A DNA stretch of 29,312 bases, taken from positions 1-29,312 of the IMG/VR virus record IMGVR_UViG_2778261593_000009; one strand, 5' to 3'. The notes under the pieces are model-generated. The model saw only the letters and a list, made by a program, of their open reading frames with translations. It did no database searches and was not told where the DNA came from. Both the position numbers and the translations under genes were made by a program. Shown here piece after piece: positions 2,123 to 10,334 of this stretch (within the stretch, counting starts at the first letter, position 1; every line of letters begins with the position of its first letter). This stretch comes from a virus. Its lineage: Duplodnaviria > Heunggongvirae > Uroviricota > Caudoviricetes.

Positions 2123-2171
2123 TCGTGAAACCCCAGCGTTACAAGACCACCATGCCCCCAGCGCTCCATGA

Positions 2172-2480
2172 TTAGCCGGGCTGTGTGCCAGTCTTGCGGG
2201 GTTTTTGAGAAGGCGATGTGCTTTTTGGCCCATCAGGGGAGAGAGACGGACTGATCTGCCCAGCAGCCTCATTTGTTTTTCCCGTCATAAGCCAATTCAT
2301 GTACTTAAAAAAGCGAGGGTGATTAACAATCTTGATAAGCACTTCGCCCCCTATGTTTTCAATCCGCCCCGTTTCATAACGACGCAAAGTGCCGATAGGC
2401 ACATCAATCAGGCCGCAAAATTCTTCGCGCGTTAAATCCTCTGATTCACGAATCACTCTAATTTTTTCACCGATAAGCAT
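2172..2480 (-). CDS. C: Immunity repressor, P2 C-like
   Basis: Position immediately upstream of int on the same strand; HTH region and C-terminal FFKYMNWLMTGKTNEAAGQISPSL resembling recalled P2 C; start taken at MLIGEKIRVI (track ORF begins at an upstream alternative start). Confidence 0.7.
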   Translation of the reverse strand: MLIGEKIRVIRESEDLTREEFCGLIDVPIGTLRRYETGRIENIGGEVLIKIVNHPRFFKYMNWLMTGKTNEAAGQISPSLSPDGPKSTSPSQKPRKTGTQPG

Positions 2481-2576
2481 TGACAGTGTTCCTATAAGTA
2501 CACTAAGCTTGCGCACAAGGTGTACTTATAAGTACACCAAGTCACAAACAACCACAGATAGCACAGGTTATCACAC
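2481..2576. promoter_or_regulatory. Divergent promoter/operator switch region between repressor and early operon
   Basis: 18-bp perfect palindrome GTGTACTTATAAGTACAC (about 2521-2538) plus a second copy of the half-site TATAAGTACAC (about 2494-2504) between two divergently transcribed genes. Confidence 0.6.
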
Positions 2577-2855
2577 ATGGCAAAAGTCCTGAACACACAC
2601 GAACAGGCAGACTTTGAGCGTTTAGCAGCGTTCTATCCCTACCGCGATGAGCATGGGTTATCAGTACTTGAAGAAAGCCTGAAAGATTACGCAAAGCGTA
2701 CCAACCAAGCTGTTAACACAGTGAAAAGACAGGCTGACAGAGGTTCAATTCCCATCAACCAGGATGAAAAGAACTCAAGACGCACAGTAAATCTCTTCGC
2801 TCTTTTCCTGAAAACAATCAGGAGCGCAGAAAAATACGTGCAGATGACAAAATAA
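2577..2855 (+). CDS. First early-operon gene; possible Cox/Apl-like small regulator (positional inference only)
   Basis: 92-aa ORF at the position occupied by cox/apl in P2/186; no sequence similarity to P2 Cox that I can recognise. Confidence 0.5.
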   Translation: MAKVLNTHEQADFERLAAFYPYRDEHGLSVLEESLKDYAKRTNQAVNTVKRQADRGSIPINQDEKNSRRTVNLFALFLKTIRSAEKYVQMTK

Positions 2856-2869
2856 CGAGGTGTCATTTT

Positions 2870-3208
2870 ATGCTGAAGCAACGCCGTAATTTTCGTACCG
2901 GAACAGAACGCCACGCTAACCGTTTCACTACCAGTGCATCACGCAGCAACATCCGCTACAGCCTGAGTGATACACACGCAACGCCGGATGGCTACCCAGT
3001 AAAACAAATCGGCGAGCACGCCTGGCTGATTGAGAAAGCTGGAATCGTGATCCACAAATGCCCACGCAATCCGTTTACCGGAAACCGCATTTTTGCATTG
3101 AGCTGCGGCGACAATCACTTCGGGCAGGATTTCACATTATACGAAGCACTACGCACGGTTGATCGTCTGCTTCGCGGGCAAAGTTTTATTAAACAGGCTG
3201 ATTTATAA
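2870..3208 (+). CDS. Hypothetical early protein
   Basis: ATG start with upstream GAGG; tightly packed in the early operon. Confidence 0.55.
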   Translation: MLKQRRNFRTGTERHANRFTTSASRSNIRYSLSDTHATPDGYPVKQIGEHAWLIEKAGIVIHKCPRNPFTGNRIFALSCGDNHFGQDFTLYEALRTVDRLLRGQSFIKQADL

Positions 3209-3218
3209 CAGGTGCTTT

Positions 3219-3497
3219 ATGACCAAAGAGCATGCACAAGGTGTATTTATCCGTTTTATTGATTTTCGCGGTGAACTGTTATTACGCGCATCAGCCATTG
3301 ACGGAGTTGTTCCATCCGAAAAAAACGCAGCTACTTACGTTTATCTGAACGGTACGTGCCTGACTGTGGAGCTTCCGTACCAGACCGTGCGAGAAATCAT
3401 TAGCGAAGCTGAAAAGGCACGTCAGATTAATAGCGATGAACCATACATCGAAATTATCTGCATGGATTCAGAAGCAGAAATCCAGAAGGCAGATTAA
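3219..3497 (+). CDS. Hypothetical early protein
   Basis: Track ORF 3159-3497 begins at TTG; first in-frame ATG (MTKEHAQG...) chosen. Confidence 0.5.
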   Translation: MTKEHAQGVFIRFIDFRGELLLRASAIDGVVPSEKNAATYVYLNGTCLTVELPYQTVREIISEAEKARQINSDEPYIEIICMDSEAEIQKAD

Positions 3498-4621: not shown

Positions 4622-4867
4622 ATGACCATTCTGGACTATATCGCCGCCAATCCGGGGTGTAGCGGTGGAGGAATCGCCGCAGCACTGAATACCCCAACCA
4701 CAGCCATTAATGCTGAGTTACGCCGACTCTGGCGCAGCGGTTCAGTCATAAGAAAAGAGCGCAAAACAGGCGGTCACTTTTCTTACCAGATAAACCCGAT
4801 GCCGTTCGGGTGTAGCAATCCACTTACCAACATGTTTAACCAGCTACTGAAGGAAGCCAGAGCATGA
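4622..4867 (+). CDS. Hypothetical early protein, possible winged-helix DNA-binding protein
   Basis: Start at MTILDYIAANPG preceded by AGGAG; HTH-like segment GIAAALNTPTTAINAELRRL. Confidence 0.5.
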   Translation: MTILDYIAANPGCSGGGIAAALNTPTTAINAELRRLWRSGSVIRKERKTGGHFSYQINPMPFGCSNPLTNMFNQLLKEARA

Positions 4868-5163
4868 GCGCCATCAACCACCAGGAATTACGCGAACTGG
4901 CGACTGACCTGCAACGAATGGCAACGCCTCAAAAATTACTGGCGTTTCGCGCAATGCTCTCGCCGTCTGCTGTGCTGGCGCTGCTGGATGAGCTGGAGCA
5001 CGCCAGAACCACACCTCTCGCCATTCGCCTGACACTCCGCCATGAAATCGAGGATTTCTGCGCGACGTTGGAGGCGCCAGGCGAACCGGAAACGCCGGAA
5101 GCAATACAGCAAGAGCTGCTGCAACGCATTGACAAGGTTTTTGATTTTTTTCTGAACCAGTAA
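4864..5163 (+). CDS. Hypothetical early protein
   Basis: 99-aa ORF; ATGA overlap with the upstream gene. Confidence 0.55.
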   Translation: MSAINHQELRELATDLQRMATPQKLLAFRAMLSPSAVLALLDELEHARTTPLAIRLTLRHEIEDFCATLEAPGEPETPEAIQQELLQRIDKVFDFFLNQ

Positions 5164-5285
5164 GAAACCAGAACATGCACACACAAAAAAACCGCTTGCC
5201 ATGCCGCAATCAGTCAGGTTACATTTCTGCTGCACCTCACAAAACGGGTGCCGGGTTTCGCAGCCTGCTGACTACACAAGCGCAC

Positions 5286-5307
5286 AACCGCGCCAGCGGT
5301 TTTTTTG
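5286..5307 (+). terminator. Rho-independent terminator after the early operon
   Basis: Hairpin ACCGC-gcca-GCGGT followed by a run of seven T. Confidence 0.5.
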
Positions 5308-5485
5308 TGCGTACTGTATTGCCACGTTTTTTTCGCGTCAGAATTATGGCGGGGCGTACGGGGCCGACTTCGGTCGGGCCGGGTTCTTGTGTAGCCGGTA
5401 CTGCGAACCTCGTACGTCTCGCCACCCACAGTTTCGCAGCTCTGGATGGTGAGTTTTCACAACTTACTACACAAGGGGCCACACC

Positions 5486-5716
5486 ATGGCAAACCGCAAA
5501 CCACACCGCGCTATCGCGGAGCGTCGTCACATCCAGACTGAAATCAACCGCAGACTTTTCCGCGCATCACGCGTCGCGCAAATCATGCACATCAATATGC
5601 TGCATGAGCGCAGCCACGCACTCTCAAACATTTATTCCGCCTCTGTTTTCAGCTATCTGGCGGATGATCTGCGCGAGCTTCAGCAGCTCATCCAGCAGCA
5701 AAACAAACTCCATTAA
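5486..5716 (+). CDS. Hypothetical protein
   Basis: 76-aa ORF; ATG preceded by AAGGGG. Confidence 0.45.
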   Translation: MANRKPHRAIAERRHIQTEINRRLFRASRVAQIMHINMLHERSHALSNIYSASVFSYLADDLRELQQLIQQQNKLH

Positions 5717-5788
5717 TTCCTGTTCCGGGCCTTTCCTGCACCTTGCGGCGGGAGGCCTTCGCACATCTGTAACAAGAGGATTGCCGCA

Positions 5789-6154
5789 ATGATTCTCGCC
5801 AACGACTTTCTTGAATACCTGCTCAACACAGAGCGTGATCTTGCCGTTCGCGTGCGTGAACGTTATGACATGTACCTGAAATCCCTGCCTGTACCGCAGC
5901 TCGCTGACGGAAAGATTATTATTGATGGTCGTTACATGATTGACAGCCACGAGGGAAATTACAGGCTTTACCGTATTGAAGGTGGCACCCCGTCCGTTAT
6001 TGGCATTTACCAGCGCCCATCCTCTGCGATCGTTGATGTGATTGCCGACAGCATCCGCATCACACATCACTATGCCGACACAGAAGACACCGTGCTGGAA
6101 ATTCAGCGGCTGGCTACCGTCTGCCGCGACACCCTGAATGGCATGACGAAGTAA
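5789..6154 (+). CDS. Hypothetical protein immediately upstream of the replication gene
   Basis: 121-aa ORF; ATG preceded by AGAGGA. Confidence 0.55.
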   Translation: MILANDFLEYLLNTERDLAVRVRERYDMYLKSLPVPQLADGKIIIDGRYMIDSHEGNYRLYRIEGGTPSVIGIYQRPSSAIVDVIADSIRITHHYADTEDTVLEIQRLATVCRDTLNGMTK

Positions 6155-6160
6155 ATCACT

Positions 6161-8983
6161 ATGACGGCAGAGCACATCAGGGACTGGCAACAACCGCGCC
6201 ACGCAGTGGGGCGTGAAGGAACGGGGATCCCCGCTCCTGAATCCGCGCTTTCCTCCTGGCTGGATGCCTACCGGGCAGAGAACGAGCGCCGCAAGGAAAT
6301 GGCTGATGCGGCGTTCTCCGCCACGCCGCTGGGCAACCTGATTAATAAAAGCCTGGACGCACAGGAAAAACAGGACAAAACCATCACACTGGCAGGAGAC
6401 GCCAGAAAACAGGCACGCGGCGCAGTGGATGAAGCCATGGCCTCGCTGCGCCTGCTGCCGTCCTATCTGCGCGATCCGCTTATTCGCCACCTCTCCTTCC
6501 TGCGCAAAAAACAGGAAGCCGATCGCCGGAAAGGCAAAAAGAGCTGGCAGGCGGAACGCTATGCACGCGGAACCCTGCGCAAAATATTCGAACGTCTGGA
6601 CCGCACCGATCACCGCTGGCTGACACCGGGTTATCGCTCCCTTGCCGGACGCGAACGCCTGGACGATTTGCTTTACCTGCCGCAGCTCAACAAACACCAG
6701 ATACAGACGCTGGCCACCATGACGGCGGCGATGTTCAGCAGCACCTTCGAAAAACTCTGCGATGGCTTTGGCGCGACCGATGGCGAGCTGACCATGGATG
6801 TAACGCTGAAGGCGTATCAGATGCTGGCCCGCATGGCGTTACACCTGCACGCCATGCCTCCACATTATGACGCACTGACAACAGACAAAGACCGGAGGAA
6901 CGAACCAGACACGGAGCTGCTGCCGGGCGCAATCCTTCGCCTGACCTGTGCGGAATGGTGGAAACGCAAACTGTGGCTGTTACGTTGCGAGTGGCGGGAA
7001 GAACAACTCCGCGCCGCCTGTCTGGTTTCCAGAAAAACATCACCCTATCTGAGCCAGGACGCGTTAAGCGAGTTTCGCGCACAGCGCGAGAAAACACGCG
7101 ATTTCCTGAAAAGTTTCATGCTGGAAAATGAAGACGGGTTCACGATTGATCTCGAGACGGTGTATTACGCGGGAGTAAGTAACCCGGTTCACCGTAAGGC
7201 AGAAATGATGGCCACCATGAAGGGACTGGAACTTCTGGCCGAAGCCCGTGGCGACAGAGCGGTGTTTCTGACTGTCACCTGCCCGTCAAAATACCACGCA
7301 ACAACGGAGAACGGTCATCCGAACCCCAAATGGAACGGGGCCACCATGCGCGACTCCAGCGATTACCTGGTTAACACATTTTTTGCGGCGGTCCGCAAAA
7401 AACTGAACCGCGACGGTCTGCGCTGGTATGGCATCCGCACGGTGGAGCCTCACCATGACGGCACTGTGCACTGGCATATGATGGTCTTTGCACATCCGGA
7501 CGAGATTGAAACCATCGTGTCCCACGTCTGCGATATTGCCATTCAGGAAGACCGCCACGAGCTGGGCGATGACATAACTCCGCGTTTTAAGGCGGAGTAC
7601 GTAGACGGCTCAAAAGGCACACCAACCAGCTACATCGCCACCTACATCGGAAAGAACCTGGACAGCCGCGCCGTGGATGGCATCGACCCGAAAACGGGCA
7701 AGCCACGCGTTGACCACGAAACCGGAAAATCAATGGCCGAGAGCGTGGAACGCGCCATCGGCTGGGCGCGCCTTCACCGGGTCCGCCAGTTCCAGTTCTT
7801 TGGCATTCCCTCCCGTCAGGTGTGGCGTGAACTCCGCCGCCTTGCCAGCCAGATGGCACGCAACCCGGAAGGCCCGCAACGGCTGAAGGATGACGCAATG
7901 GATGCGGTTCTTGCTGCCGCTGATGCCGGGTGTTTTGCCACCTACATTGAAAAACAGGGTGGCGTACTTGTTCCGCGCAAGGACTACCTGATTCGCACAG
8001 CCTACGACCTCGCAGATGAGCTGAACGATTACGGCGAACAGAGTGTACAGATTTACGGGATCTGGTCGCCACTCATCGGGGAATCCTCCCGTGTGTGCAC
8101 GCACCCGGATAACTGGAAGCTGGTAAGACGTAAACCGGAAGCGGAAGACAGCACCCACGAAAATGGTTTTGACCTTCAGGGCGGCCCTGCCGCCCCTTGG
8201 ACTCGTGGCAATAACTGTCCCCGTGTACAGGAAACAGGCAACAGCGGGACAGAACTGTCGGAAGAGCAACCAACACCGTGGCCGCAGATCCCTGACAGCG
8301 TTGATGTGGATGAATGGATGCGCTCACTGAAACGGCACGAACGCCGGGCGCTGATGCGTTCGCTGCGTGACAAACAGGCAAAAAACAGCAGTGATGAAAT
8401 GCAGAGCTGGACACAGAGCCGCAAACAGCCGCGACCTTTGCCTGATAACCACGAGTTACTCGCTAAAGAATGGCGGGAGTCTGCTGAATCTCTCGGCCTG
8501 CATATTGGTGAACAGCAGATGCAGCACCTGTTACGGGGCGGCAGTCTGTACGTTGACGGCAGCATCATTGCACCGCAGGGATTTGAAATTGTACGCAAAC
8601 CGGATACCCGCCCGGACAGCCGAATCACGCAGCTCTGGCAGCGCCTGAGCCGTAATCACGGCGTAAGCAGCACGGAGATCCGCCATAACCCGGTCGCCAG
8701 TTATCTGGAACAGCTAGGGGCATCAGACCCCGAAGCCGCCGCACGCCTGGCATCCACACTTCAGCAAGACCAGAACACCATGAAAACACCCGTTACCGTG
8801 CTTTCTGACATGCTGCGCGCCATCCGTGACGCAGAGCACGCACAGAGAATCAGTGAAACCACTGAACGCGCCCGCCGCAAAGCAAACCTGCTGCGGGGTG
8901 GCCTGACCAGTGGAAACAAAAAACAGACAGAAACGGGATTCACAAATCCCGTAAATGAGCAAAAAACGCGCCGCGATATATGA
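6161..8983 (+). CDS. A: Rolling-circle replication initiation endonuclease, P2 gpA-like
   Basis: HUH-type motif VEPHHDGTVHWHMMVF and paired tyrosines YIATYIGKNLD, matching the conserved motifs of P2 A protein; 940 aa. Confidence 0.85.
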   Translation: MTAEHIRDWQQPRHAVGREGTGIPAPESALSSWLDAYRAENERRKEMADAAFSATPLGNLINKSLDAQEKQDKTITLAGDARKQARGAVDEAMASLRLLPSYLRDPLIRHLSFLRKKQEADRRKGKKSWQAERYARGTLRKIFERLDRTDHRWLTPGYRSLAGRERLDDLLYLPQLNKHQIQTLATMTAAMFSSTFEKLCDGFGATDGELTMDVTLKAYQMLARMALHLHAMPPHYDALTTDKDRRNEPDTELLPGAILRLTCAEWWKRKLWLLRCEWREEQLRAACLVSRKTSPYLSQDALSEFRAQREKTRDFLKSFMLENEDGFTIDLETVYYAGVSNPVHRKAEMMATMKGLELLAEARGDRAVFLTVTCPSKYHATTENGHPNPKWNGATMRDSSDYLVNTFFAAVRKKLNRDGLRWYGIRTVEPHHDGTVHWHMMVFAHPDEIETIVSHVCDIAIQEDRHELGDDITPRFKAEYVDGSKGTPTSYIATYIGKNLDSRAVDGIDPKTGKPRVDHETGKSMAESVERAIGWARLHRVRQFQFFGIPSRQVWRELRRLASQMARNPEGPQRLKDDAMDAVLAAADAGCFATYIEKQGGVLVPRKDYLIRTAYDLADELNDYGEQSVQIYGIWSPLIGESSRVCTHPDNWKLVRRKPEAEDSTHENGFDLQGGPAAPWTRGNNCPRVQETGNSGTELSEEQPTPWPQIPDSVDVDEWMRSLKRHERRALMRSLRDKQAKNSSDEMQSWTQSRKQPRPLPDNHELLAKEWRESAESLGLHIGEQQMQHLLRGGSLYVDGSIIAPQGFEIVRKPDTRPDSRITQLWQRLSRNHGVSSTEIRHNPVASYLEQLGASDPEAAARLASTLQQDQNTMKTPVTVLSDMLRAIRDAEHAQRISETTERARRKANLLRGGLTSGNKKQTETGFTNPVNEQKTRRDI

Positions 8984-9058: not shown

Positions 9059-10018
9059 ATGAAAATTTGTATCGACGACGGCTCCACCAACATCAAGCTG
9101 GCATGGACTGAGAACGGCGAACGCCGCAACGCCATCAGCCCGAACAGCTTCAAGTCGGAATGGTCAGCGCCGTTCGGTGGCACGCAGCCCGCGAACTACA
9201 TGCTTGATGGCGTGCGCTATGGTTTTGATCCGGTCAGCGATCGCTTTGTCCAGACGACCGACACGCAATACCAGTACAGCGATGTGAATGTTATTGCCAT
9301 TCATCATGCGCTGGTCAAATCAGGCATCACACCACAGGAGGTGGATGTGGTTGTCACCCTGCCACTGAGCGAGTATTTCGATACAAACGCACAGCCGGAC
9401 ATGGCCAACATCAGCCGCAAAAAAGCGAACGTTATGCGCCCGGTGGAGTACCAGAACGGCGAAGCATTCACTATCCGTAACGTGCGGGTTATGCCTGAAT
9501 CCATTCCGGCAGGCTTTAAAGCACTGGCTGACATGAGTCCGTTTGAATCCCTGCTGATTGTGGATTTGGGCGGAACCACGCTGGATGTGGCAAAGGTTCA
9601 GGGGCAACTGGCAGGTATCAGCCAGGTGTTTTGCGATCCACACGTAGGCGTTTCTCTGATGGCCGATGCCGTGCTGTCGGTGATGGCCACCAACGGTATG
9701 CGTACCAGTCACCACATCGCTAATACCATTATCGAACATCGCCACGATGAAGCCTGGCTGCGCCAGCACATCCACAATGACGCGCATTACGCCAGCCTGA
9801 TGGCAGTTATTCGTGAAAAGGAGGAAACACTGAAACAACGCGTGATCCGCGCGCTGGCGGGTTTTTCGGGTTACGGGCGGGTGATGGTTGTCGGTGGAGG
9901 GGCGGAGATTGTGGCACCCGCCATCCGCGAAGCCTGCGGAGTTAATGCGACTTTCATCGCGGACGGGGTGCCACAGTTTGCTCTGGTTAATGGGCTGTAC
10001 GCAATGGACAAGGAGTAA
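9059..10018 (+). CDS. parM: Actin-like segregation ATPase ParM (StbA)
   Basis: N-terminus MKICIDDGSTNIKLAW and motifs DVNVIAIHHAL, VMPESIPAG, LIVDLGGTTLD, FSGYGRVMVVGGGAE, LVNGLY closely parallel plasmid R1 ParM as I recall it. Confidence 0.85.
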   Translation: MKICIDDGSTNIKLAWTENGERRNAISPNSFKSEWSAPFGGTQPANYMLDGVRYGFDPVSDRFVQTTDTQYQYSDVNVIAIHHALVKSGITPQEVDVVVTLPLSEYFDTNAQPDMANISRKKANVMRPVEYQNGEAFTIRNVRVMPESIPAGFKALADMSPFESLLIVDLGGTTLDVAKVQGQLAGISQVFCDPHVGVSLMADAVLSVMATNGMRTSHHIANTIIEHRHDEAWLRQHIHNDAHYASLMAVIREKEETLKQRVIRALAGFSGYGRVMVVGGGAEIVAPAIREACGVNATFIADGVPQFALVNGLYAMDKE

Positions 10019-10022
10019 ACCA

Positions 10023-10334
10023 ATGACGACACCAACCAGACGGATAAGTTTCTATCTGAAGCCCGCCGCCGTCAAGAACGAAGGCGAAGCATGCGCCTGG
10101 CTGGACAGCCTTACACCAGAAGCCCGCAAAAGCGGCCAACGCGTGGCTTTTCTGGCCGGGCTGGCACTTCTGAAAATGAATCCGGCAGAGGCTTACCGAC
10201 TGGCTGCATGGGCTGATGATGAAGCGTTATCAGTGACACAGACCAGGACAGAACGCCCCGCATCACAGCCAGTATCAACCGCACAGATAACCAGCCAGAT
10301 GGCCGGGAATATCCAGGCGTTATTTCCTGAATAA
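10023..10334 (+). CDS. parR: ParR-like centromere-binding adaptor
   Basis: Small gene immediately downstream of parM with AGGAG SD; ISFYLKP...AFLAGLALL resembles the R1 ParR N-terminal pattern. Confidence 0.6.
   Translation: MTTPTRRISFYLKPAAVKNEGEACAWLDSLTPEARKSGQRVAFLAGLALLKMNPAEAYRLAAWADDEALSVTQTRTERPASQPVSTAQITSQMAGNIQALFPE

Follow-up and report, generated by a model that had tools for sequence, protein, structure and literature searches.

The immI region of phages P1 and P7 (c4-icd-ant) holds the founding member of the Rfam C4 family, an antisense RNA that is cut from its target's own transcript. The a' and b' sequences of P1 c4 pair with a2 and b2 at the ribosome-binding site of the first downstream open reading frame (ORF), preventing anti-repressor synthesis, and differences in the a and b sequences give rise to the heteroimmunity of P1 and P7 (PMC12197685). 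Both the C4 RNA of P1/P7 and the CI RNA of P4 are RNase P substrates (PMC5499578), and C4 was catalogued together with the flanking a1b1 element by Weinberg et al. 2010 (PMC2864571). In this work, we analyzed the whole 29,312-nt stretch of the IMG/VR record IMGVR_UViG_2778261593_000009 (hereafter the window), which is a complete P88-like prophage (Xuanwuvirus, Peduoviridae, P2 family) of Escherichia coli and not a satellite. The noncoding island located at 5164-5485 of this prophage very probably constitutes an antisense-RNA immunity cassette of the P1 c4/P4 cI type, working in the way proposed below.

Two further systems are relevant to the interpretation of this locus. In P4, the CI RNA promotes termination (summarised in PMC4825925) and the anti-repressor binds the C repressor of P2 (PMC2995052). 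The isrK-orf45/STnc1160-anrP locus of Gifsy-1 is the founding member of the Rfam isrK family. In this prophage the isrK promoter drives the downstream genes while translation is blocked, the b1-b' helix has been proven by compensatory mutants and a processed RNA, STnc1160, originates from read-through (PMC4825925). Over-expression of IsrK, acting in trans, induces the prophage through the anti-repressor, an activation that the authors explained by a structural switch and not by titration of the C4-like RNA (PMC4825925).

RNA families and architecture of the island

The island extends over 322 nt, from the stop codon of ORF 4864-5163 to the ATG of ORF 5486-5716, and interrupts a plus-strand operon that is otherwise tightly packed, in agreement with the gap of about 320 bp reported in the initial annotation of this DNA. 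That annotation had left open whether the gap contained a small RNA locus, a regulatory checkpoint or a protein-binding array. When the whole window was compared with Rfam at the curated thresholds, exactly two matches were obtained, both full-length and both within the island, thus bearing out the small RNA option. The isrK model (RF01394) matched positions 5232-5306 of the plus strand with 64.1 bits against a gathering score of 50 (model positions 1-77 of 77), and the C4 model (RF01695) matched positions 5342-5429 of the same strand with 83.2 bits against a gathering score of 45 (model positions 1-87 of 87, E = 3.4e-15). Permissive thresholds only added RF03163, the "a1, b1 targets of C4 antisense RNA", at 5219-5271, with 20.3 bits and below its gathering score of 46.7; the a1 and b1 sites are present despite this weak match, and the isrK model describes the stretch better. 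A tRNA/tmRNA scan of the window returned no match.

The predicted mature C4 RNA spans about 5347-5427 and is modelled as a 17-bp closing stem around two hairpins, the first carrying a UUCG loop (CCGAC-UUCG-GUCGG, 5364-5377) and the second located at 5378-5399. The GC-rich UUCG hairpin singled out in the initial annotation is therefore hairpin 1 of C4. The minimum free energy (MFE) of the RNA is -47.6 kcal/mol, with a structure identical to the family consensus (z = -3.95), and the 3' tail is of the ACC type, the closing stem being followed by A-CC like the acceptor end of a tRNA. Across relatives, the pairs of hairpin 1 are 96-97% canonical with 4-6 pair types per position, which indicates compensatory changes, and the closing stem around both hairpins forms in 97% of 164 distinct cassettes, with 80 different stem sequences. 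This last count was obtained by register-free folding, whose shuffle control is weak, as 62% of the shuffles still give at least 10 pairs. Pair counts at fixed offsets are unsuited to the long closing stem because of indels in distant genera, and they returned 72.7% canonical pairs vs 66% after a shift by one.

The upstream RNA belongs to the IsrK-type leader/decoy RNAs, the counterpart of P4 seqA, and its modelled architecture comprises a 5' hairpin, a second hairpin presenting the b1 site, a single-stranded a1 site and an intrinsic terminator. The terminator (5286-5306, plus strand) was recovered by a terminator scan, by the Rfam isrK consensus structure and by folding, and consists of the 6-bp stem AACCGC/GCGGTT with a GCCA loop (5286-5301) and a T-run reaching 5306. 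It corresponds to the rho-independent terminator already recognized in the initial annotation, which is the terminator of IsrK. The 3' U-run that follows the stem is the only sequence feature in line with Hfq binding. Briani and colleagues reportedly described in 2000 that the P4 terminator t1, just after seqA, depends on the CI RNA to terminate efficiently and takes part in CI autoregulation; its position is presumably the one occupied here by the terminator at 5286-5306.

A consensus scan identified a candidate sigma-70 promoter, P_isrK (5196-5225, plus strand), made of a -35 hexamer TTGCCA (5196-5201), an 18-nt spacer and a -10 hexamer TACATT (5220-5225) ending 7 nt ahead of the start of the isrK match at 5232. 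An A-tract (5185-5193) lies at the position of a proximal UP element, and a promoter-like hexamer pair occurs at the equivalent position in every lineage despite the differing sequences. Neither a LexA box nor repressor operators were found at the predicted isrK promoter. Since it carries neither the operator-like repeats of the main switch nor a LexA box, this promoter is probably constitutive in the lysogen. A second promoter-like site (5319-5347) was considered as a promoter of C4 and rejected, as transcription from it would begin within the closing stem of C4 and the spacing of its -35 hexamer is not kept in lambdoid or P4 relatives.

Pairing sites and their covariation

The initial annotation had listed three copies of one motif and two of another, and all five were recovered: CTACACAAG occurs at 5272 and 5467 in direct orientation and at 5386 inverted, and exact copies of GTTTCGCAGC start at 5255 and 5431. 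The first motif is found exactly 3 times in the 29-kb window against a shuffle expectation of 0.19, and none of 100 shuffles reached 3. The second, searched as a 10-mer with 1 mismatch, is not above chance window-wide (4 vs 3.06 expected); its significance comes from position and covariation. An inverted partial partner of the second motif, CTGCGAA at 5401-5407, had been overlooked; with its inclusion both motifs are three-membered, each consisting of two direct copies and one complementary copy.

When these copies were placed on the predicted RNAs, the inverted one, CTTGTGTAG, fell in the 12-nt loop of C4 hairpin 2, where it provides the hypervariable a' recognition sequence CUUGUGUAG (5386-5394), with matched changes in a1 and a2. 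CTGCGAA provides the b' recognition sequence CUGCGAA (5401-5407) in the predicted single-stranded junction between hairpin 2 and the closing stem. The direct copies, on the same plus strand as a' and b', are the corresponding targets. The a1 site CUACACAAG (5272-5280), a perfect 9-nt complement of a', would be single-stranded 5 nt before the terminator stem, and the b1 site UUCGCAG (5257-5263, within GTTTCGCAGC at 5255-5264) falls in the loop of the second IsrK hairpin. On the other side, the b2 site UUCGCAG (5433-5439, within GTTTCGCAGC at 5431-5440) lies 4 nt past the C4 match, and the a2 site (5467-5478, with CUACACAAG at 5467-5475) overlaps the Shine-Dalgarno sequence AAGGGG (5473-5478), 7 nt before the ATG of a 76-aa gene at 5486. 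Perfect complements of 9 nt (a) and 7 nt (b) are thus present on both flanks of C4, and the MFE structure of the leader 5232-5500 forms a cis helix between a1/b1 and a'/b', as in Gifsy-1. By their complementarity and covariation, the repeats are RNA pairing sites.

The covariation was evaluated on three collections of related loci. In 13 of 13 annotated relatives (P88, one Citrobacter phage, five E. coli prophages, five lambdoid phages and P4), a' and b' differ and the four flanking sites have changed to match. Cassettes collected via the invariant scaffold pattern provided a first set of 88 unique cassettes from viral contigs, with 40 a'/b' combinations, and a second, independent set of 115 cassettes with 87 combinations from species-representative genomes of Pseudomonas, enterobacteria, Burkholderiales, Xanthomonadales and a few Alphaproteobacteria. 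We scored the share of loci with a contiguous Watson-Crick complement of at least 7 nt in their own flanks (cognate) vs the flanks of other loci (non-cognate). The first set returned cognate and non-cognate values of 61% vs 3.5% for a1, 85% vs 3.6% for a2, 97% vs 3.0% for b1 and 99% vs 1.2% for b2. In the second set the cognate values were 63% for both a1 and a2, 87% for b1 and 86% for b2 (63-87% overall), vs 2-4% for non-cognate flanks, the non-cognate value of a1 being 3.7%. Taken together, the two sets comprise about 200 cassettes with more than 100 different loop sequences and show 61-99% cognate vs 1-4% non-cognate complementarity. Moreover, a2 is directly followed or overlapped by a Shine-Dalgarno sequence and a start codon in 64 of 72 genome loci of the second set. 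The longest Watson-Crick complement replaced a G-U-tolerant best ungapped pairing, which separated cognate from non-cognate flanks poorly (means of 8.4 vs 7.2 of 9). The comparison of structure and covariance across homologous prophages, recommended by the initial annotation, thus gave a positive outcome, with co-varying a and b sites and preserved pairing of the C4 scaffold.

The same data bear on the proposal that the motifs are binding sites of an early phage protein, arranged as an operator or iteron array, and that the island is a DNA control region or an origin. The occurrence of three 9-mer and two 10-mer copies within 220 bp would suit such an array, as would the helix-turn-helix genes (MarR-like) just upstream. 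However, nearly all relatives carry other motifs in an almost unchanged flanking scaffold, each locus keeping the complementarity to its own loops, and motifs that vary but track their own RNA loops point to RNA-RNA pairing and not to an operator. A binding protein encoded elsewhere would have to change together with the motifs, but relatives exchange the neighbouring genes freely. In addition, the operator-like repeats of the phage repressor, TATAAGTACAC (2493, 2527), are absent from the island, and the P2-family origin lies inside gene A in the P2 record. The protein-binding array of the initial annotation was therefore abandoned, its probability being close to negligible.

The two parts of the recognition code also vary in their combinations. 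The same a' (CTTTGGTTG) was found with three different b' (loci L003, L031, L053 and others), and the b' of the window, CTGCGAA, with at least 4 different a' sequences, a reassortment that suggests recombination between the halves of the specificity code. Tandemly duplicated C4 cassettes were observed in some viral contigs, either as repeated scaffold matches (at 7051 and 7920 in L058) or as repeated N-terminal peptides in one long ORF (L096, with three in-frame repeats of the N-terminus of the downstream ORF).

Besides the pairing sites, the island contains a 21-nt inverted repeat, I1, whose left arm (5179-5199, plus strand) is 90% complementary to the right arm (5292-5312), the latter comprising the 3' half of the terminator and the T-run. 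The MFE structure of 5164-5312 forms the I1 helix in place of the terminator (z = -3.56), and this helix is possible only in transcripts coming from the early promoter. I1 is conserved but invariant in all P2-like cassettes, with no covariation, and is absent from the lambdoid and P4 versions; it is uncertain whether its left arm acts as UP element and -35 or as part of a long-range helix. A role as antiterminator was not adopted: the thermodynamics fit, but covariation is lacking, other lineages miss the arm, and pairing with the 3' half of the terminator and not with the 5' half makes the switch kinetically unfavourable.

These features could be taken to indicate that the island is a cis-acting attenuator only, made of a terminator and alternative leader structures, with a decayed or inert C4 having no role in trans. 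In favour of this view, the terminator is real, the 21-nt upstream segment can pair with its 3' half in upstream-derived transcripts, the MFE structure of the leader indicates extensive cis structure, and the trans role of C4 in this phage is read from sequence. Nevertheless, the C4 score of 83 bits is as high as in any relative and all target sites are perfect, and the preservation of this three-way complementarity argues that C4 is not a decayed copy. Among 5,426 complete E. coli genomes, about 1,150 contain a match to the cassette with at least 80% identity. The upstream arm shows no covariation and is missing in other lineages. Finally, cis and trans roles are compatible, as both operate in Gifsy-1. 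We consider an exclusively cis-acting element improbable and retain the antisense-RNA immunity cassette as the interpretation of the island.

Downstream genes and coding potential of the island

The gene following a2 (5486-5716, plus strand) encodes a 76-aa protein of the epsilon ("Derepression") family, ORF76, a predicted anti-repressor. It matches Pfam PF25738 with 31.3 bits vs a cut-off of 27 and is 29% identical to P4 epsilon over 66 aa (E = 1e-8). Its frame displays a coding signature, with 58% synonymous differences vs 21-24% in the other two frames. In other lineages, the cargo following a2 consists of Rha, Bro-N or epsilon-family proteins, all of the anti-repressor type. ORF76 is followed on the plus strand by ORF121 (5789-6154), to which no function was assigned, and by the gene for the rolling-circle replication initiator gpA (6161-8983; Pfam Phage_GPA, 431.8 bits). 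No promoter-like site was found on the plus strand between 5347 and 6500. Because ORF121 and gpA (5789-8983) lie on the same strand with no intervening promoter-like site, and because in P4 epsilon and alpha follow the CI RNA in a parallel way, the two genes are likely under the same gate as ORF76. The checkpoint between early and replication genes envisaged by the initial annotation finds its counterpart, in spirit, in a cassette that separates the early accessory genes from the run of epsilon-like gene, ORF121 and gpA. The homologous cassettes of P4, P1 and Gifsy-1 control downstream genes of just this kind. The 72-nt spacer between ORF76 and ORF121 (5717-5788) contains a GC-rich hairpin, GGCCUUUCC...GGGAGGCC, with no U-run after it and no match to an Rfam family even at permissive thresholds.

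The gene order of the prophage is integrase, C-type repressor, Cox-like gene, early accessory genes, cassette, 76-aa gene, ORF121, gpA and ParM. The repressor is 39% identical to P2 C (E = 2e-23) and the structural genes are P88-like. Two direct repeats of TATAAGTACAC (2493-2503 and 2527-2537) are located between the divergent repressor gene (2172-2516, minus strand) and the Cox-like gene (2577-2855). The P2-type repressor binds to direct repeats, and this pair is probably its operator. Directly after gpA, as in P88, come actin-like segregation genes of the ParM type (StbA_N / ParM, 9059-10334), which may point to plasmid-like maintenance as an option or to a function in segregating DNA. The island itself is 100% identical to the chromosome of E. 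coli UMNK88 and about 99% identical to Xuanwuvirus (P88-like) phages. At the E. coli matches, RefSeq carries either no annotation or a pseudo "ash family protein".

This label reflects a different reading, in which the region encodes a protein of the "Ash family", in ORF 5175-5792 (205 aa) or in a shorter ORF from ATG 5346, and the repeats and hairpins are incidental. The 205-aa ORF has a marginal match to Pfam PF10554, Phage_ASH (26.6 bits vs a cut-off of 26), and "ash family protein" is the name that this stretch bears in RefSeq/GenBank records. In 24 of 25 P2-like relatives, no stop codon interrupts the frame from ATG 5346 for about 148 codons; in the window this frame runs to 5792, spanning the whole epsilon-like gene and stopping in an ATGA overlap with the start of ORF121 at 5789. 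ATG 5346 falls within the closing stem of C4, on its 5' strand, and is the equivalent of the start codon of Gifsy-1 orf45, which is translated and couples translation to the anti-repressor (PMC4825925). However, in the overlap with ORF76 the 205-aa frame shows 21% synonymous differences, vs 24% in the control frame and 58% in the ORF76 frame. The openness of the frame is not significant, as about 35% of synonymous-codon permutations are stop-free when the ORF76 protein is kept fixed. The Phage_ASH match lies exactly on the isrK-C4 DNA (5220-5501 of the window), where variation is concentrated in the a and b sites and compensates base pairs, a pattern that a protein would not impose.

Translation and selection of this stretch as a Phage_ASH protein domain were not supported, and we concluded that the 205-aa ORF is not a selected protein. 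The initial annotation had regarded this ORF, if real, as the challenge to a noncoding island: the frame is indeed open in relatives, but without protein-level selection. A protein-coding region with incidental repeats is thus very improbable; by analogy with Gifsy-1 orf45, the frame may represent a translated but non-functional leader ORF of the antisense-RNA cassette, in which the act of translation would matter and not the product.

The Phage_ASH family was also evaluated in the relatives. Its profile matches the obsolete "cI protein" coding sequence (CDS) of P4 (locus L009, 8330-8521, minus strand) with 59.7 bits, and the functional product of this CDS is the CI RNA (Forti et al. 1995, cited in PMC5499578 and PMC4825925). 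True P4 epsilon matches PF25738 only and not PF10554. The profile also matches N-terminal extensions of lambdoid "antirepressor" CDSs (e.g., L006, 2503-2793), and the "ASH" frame is in frame with the following gene in P4 and in lambdoid phages, which is not the case in the window. PF10554 therefore appears to be a translation of isrK-C4-a2 DNA. In Shiga toxin (Stx) and related lambdoid phages (L004-L008, about 2141-3306), CDSs of about 383 aa named "antirepressor", "peptidase" or "Rha" run through isrK and C4, and their true start is likely the ATG just past a2, resulting in a Rha-domain protein of about 181 aa. In a survey of P4-like satellites, PF10554 served as the "epsilon" marker (PMC8628076), yet in P4 this family overlies the CI RNA and not epsilon. 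A probably spurious protein family has thus been propagated through annotation.

Proposed mechanism and comparison with known systems

RNA families, structure, complementarity and covariation of the pairing sites, the position of a2 over the ribosome-binding site and the identities of the downstream genes were obtained here; the features listed by the initial annotation were confirmed and its interpretation was partly supported. For promoter use, read-through, RNase P release, repression and decoy action, the scheme that we propose follows the homologous systems. A constitutive promoter at 5196-5225 would start transcription at about 5232, and most transcripts would end at 5306 as short IsrK, the remainder reading through. 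RNase P and 3' trimming would free a stable C4 of about 80 nt from the read-through RNA, and its a' and b' sequences would then pair with a2 and b2 on read-through or early-operon mRNA, either of the own prophage or of a superinfecting phage of the same specificity. This pairing would occlude the ribosome-binding site of the epsilon-like gene, and the lost translation, possibly with induced termination, would also hold down ORF121 and gpA. Pairing of C4 with a1 and b1 on nascent or free IsrK might provide feedback on C4 synthesis, and the short IsrK carrying a1 and b1 could act as a decoy titrating C4. Upon IsrK excess or C4 depletion, the epsilon-like protein would be made and would inactivate the P2-C-type repressor, leading to lytic growth. 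The variable a' and b' sequences would define RNA immunity specificities.

Several points weigh against this scheme. RNA synthesis in this host is predicted from sequence, the candidate promoter being a 9/12 consensus match, and the action of the epsilon-like protein on the phage's own repressor is suggested by homology at 29% identity. The model systems differ in outcome, with a translational block in P1, induced termination in P4 and switching by IsrK in trans in Gifsy-1. Lytic growth depends on gpA, so that transcripts of the early operon must have some way past the gate. Moreover, GGGUUUC is common to both b sites, which makes cross-reaction between specificities possible, and the whole-segment duplex energy with the P88 RNA does not discriminate (-32.8 vs -35.5 kcal/mol) and was not used as evidence.

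Since both families are already in Rfam and the mechanism is known from P1/P7, P4 and Gifsy-1, the locus is a real but ordinary, previously unannotated member of a known RNA family. It goes modestly beyond the textbook cases in three respects: a helper-type phage of the P2 family carries a P4-style cassette, with an epsilon-type gene, immediately ahead of its replication initiator; the locus is systematically unannotated or mis-annotated; and the a and b specificities are very diverse and seemingly reassort. As the locus is blank or labelled "ash family" in about one fifth of complete E. coli genomes, a functional immunity RNA would have been overlooked there. Judging from the many a'/b' specificities, there may be a large natural repertoire of orthogonal antisense RNA-target pairs. 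If the scheme is correct, induction would have a concrete and testable route, in which an RNA-gated anti-repressor of the epsilon type acts on a repressor of the P2-C type. P2 is not known to be inducible, unlike P88. Induction of P88 occurs with mitomycin C (PMC5285337).

A broader hypothesis is that P88-like phages and P4-like satellites share an interchangeable RNA-immunity module with an independently reassorting a/b address, which gates the epsilon-type anti-repressor and the replication initiator of the helper. We regard this as unlikely, but if it holds, a helper and a satellite, or prophages residing in the same cell, could shut down or induce one another through RNA alone: a matching C4/CI RNA would block the anti-repressor and replication of the other element, and a matching IsrK/seqA decoy would trigger its induction. 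This would add an RNA-level layer to helper-satellite and prophage-prophage conflict.

As regards the known systems, P2 and 186 share the genome plan of the prophage, with the C repressor, Cox and gpA of P2 in the early operon and cI, apl and A in 186. The anti-repressor Tum of 186 is controlled via LexA, and P2 has no annotated anti-repressor of its own. Neither P2 nor 186 gave an isrK or C4 match, which identifies the cassette as an addition in the P88-like branch. The comparison with P1/P7, which is based on literature and Rfam membership, shows an antisense RNA working as a second layer of control below a protein repressor, in line with our proposal; in contrast, Icd and Ant do not belong to the epsilon family and no replication gene lies downstream in P1. 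Gifsy-1 has the layout predicted here, of promoter, IsrK, terminator, C4-like RNA and anti-repressor, and the lambdoid relatives are about 70% identical to the window across isrK and C4. It differs in its lambdoid context, in the Rha-type anti-repressor and in the short orf45 that ends before anrP, the equivalent frame here counting 148 codons.

Unlike P4, a helper-dependent satellite, the element described here is a complete phage of the P2-like type, equipped with gpA, structural genes and a C/Cox switch. The CI RNA is the sole immunity factor of P4, which carries the alpha primase-helicase, and our prophage has a C-type repressor in addition. IsrK and C4 are separated by 35 nt here and by 107 nt in P4, a 64-aa ORF separates seqC and epsilon in P4 while the epsilon homolog is the first gene here, and the replication gene encodes a primase-helicase in P4 and a rolling-circle initiator here. 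Apart from these differences, the seqA region and the CI RNA of P4 match the isrK and C4 models in the same order and on the same strand, and its a' and b' sequences (CCUGUGAA and UUCUCAC) have complementary sites on either flank. The CI RNA is followed in the same operon by an epsilon-family gene and, after it, a replication gene; the P4-type arrangement of seqA, CI RNA, seqC, epsilon and replication gene is found in the P88-like prophage as well.

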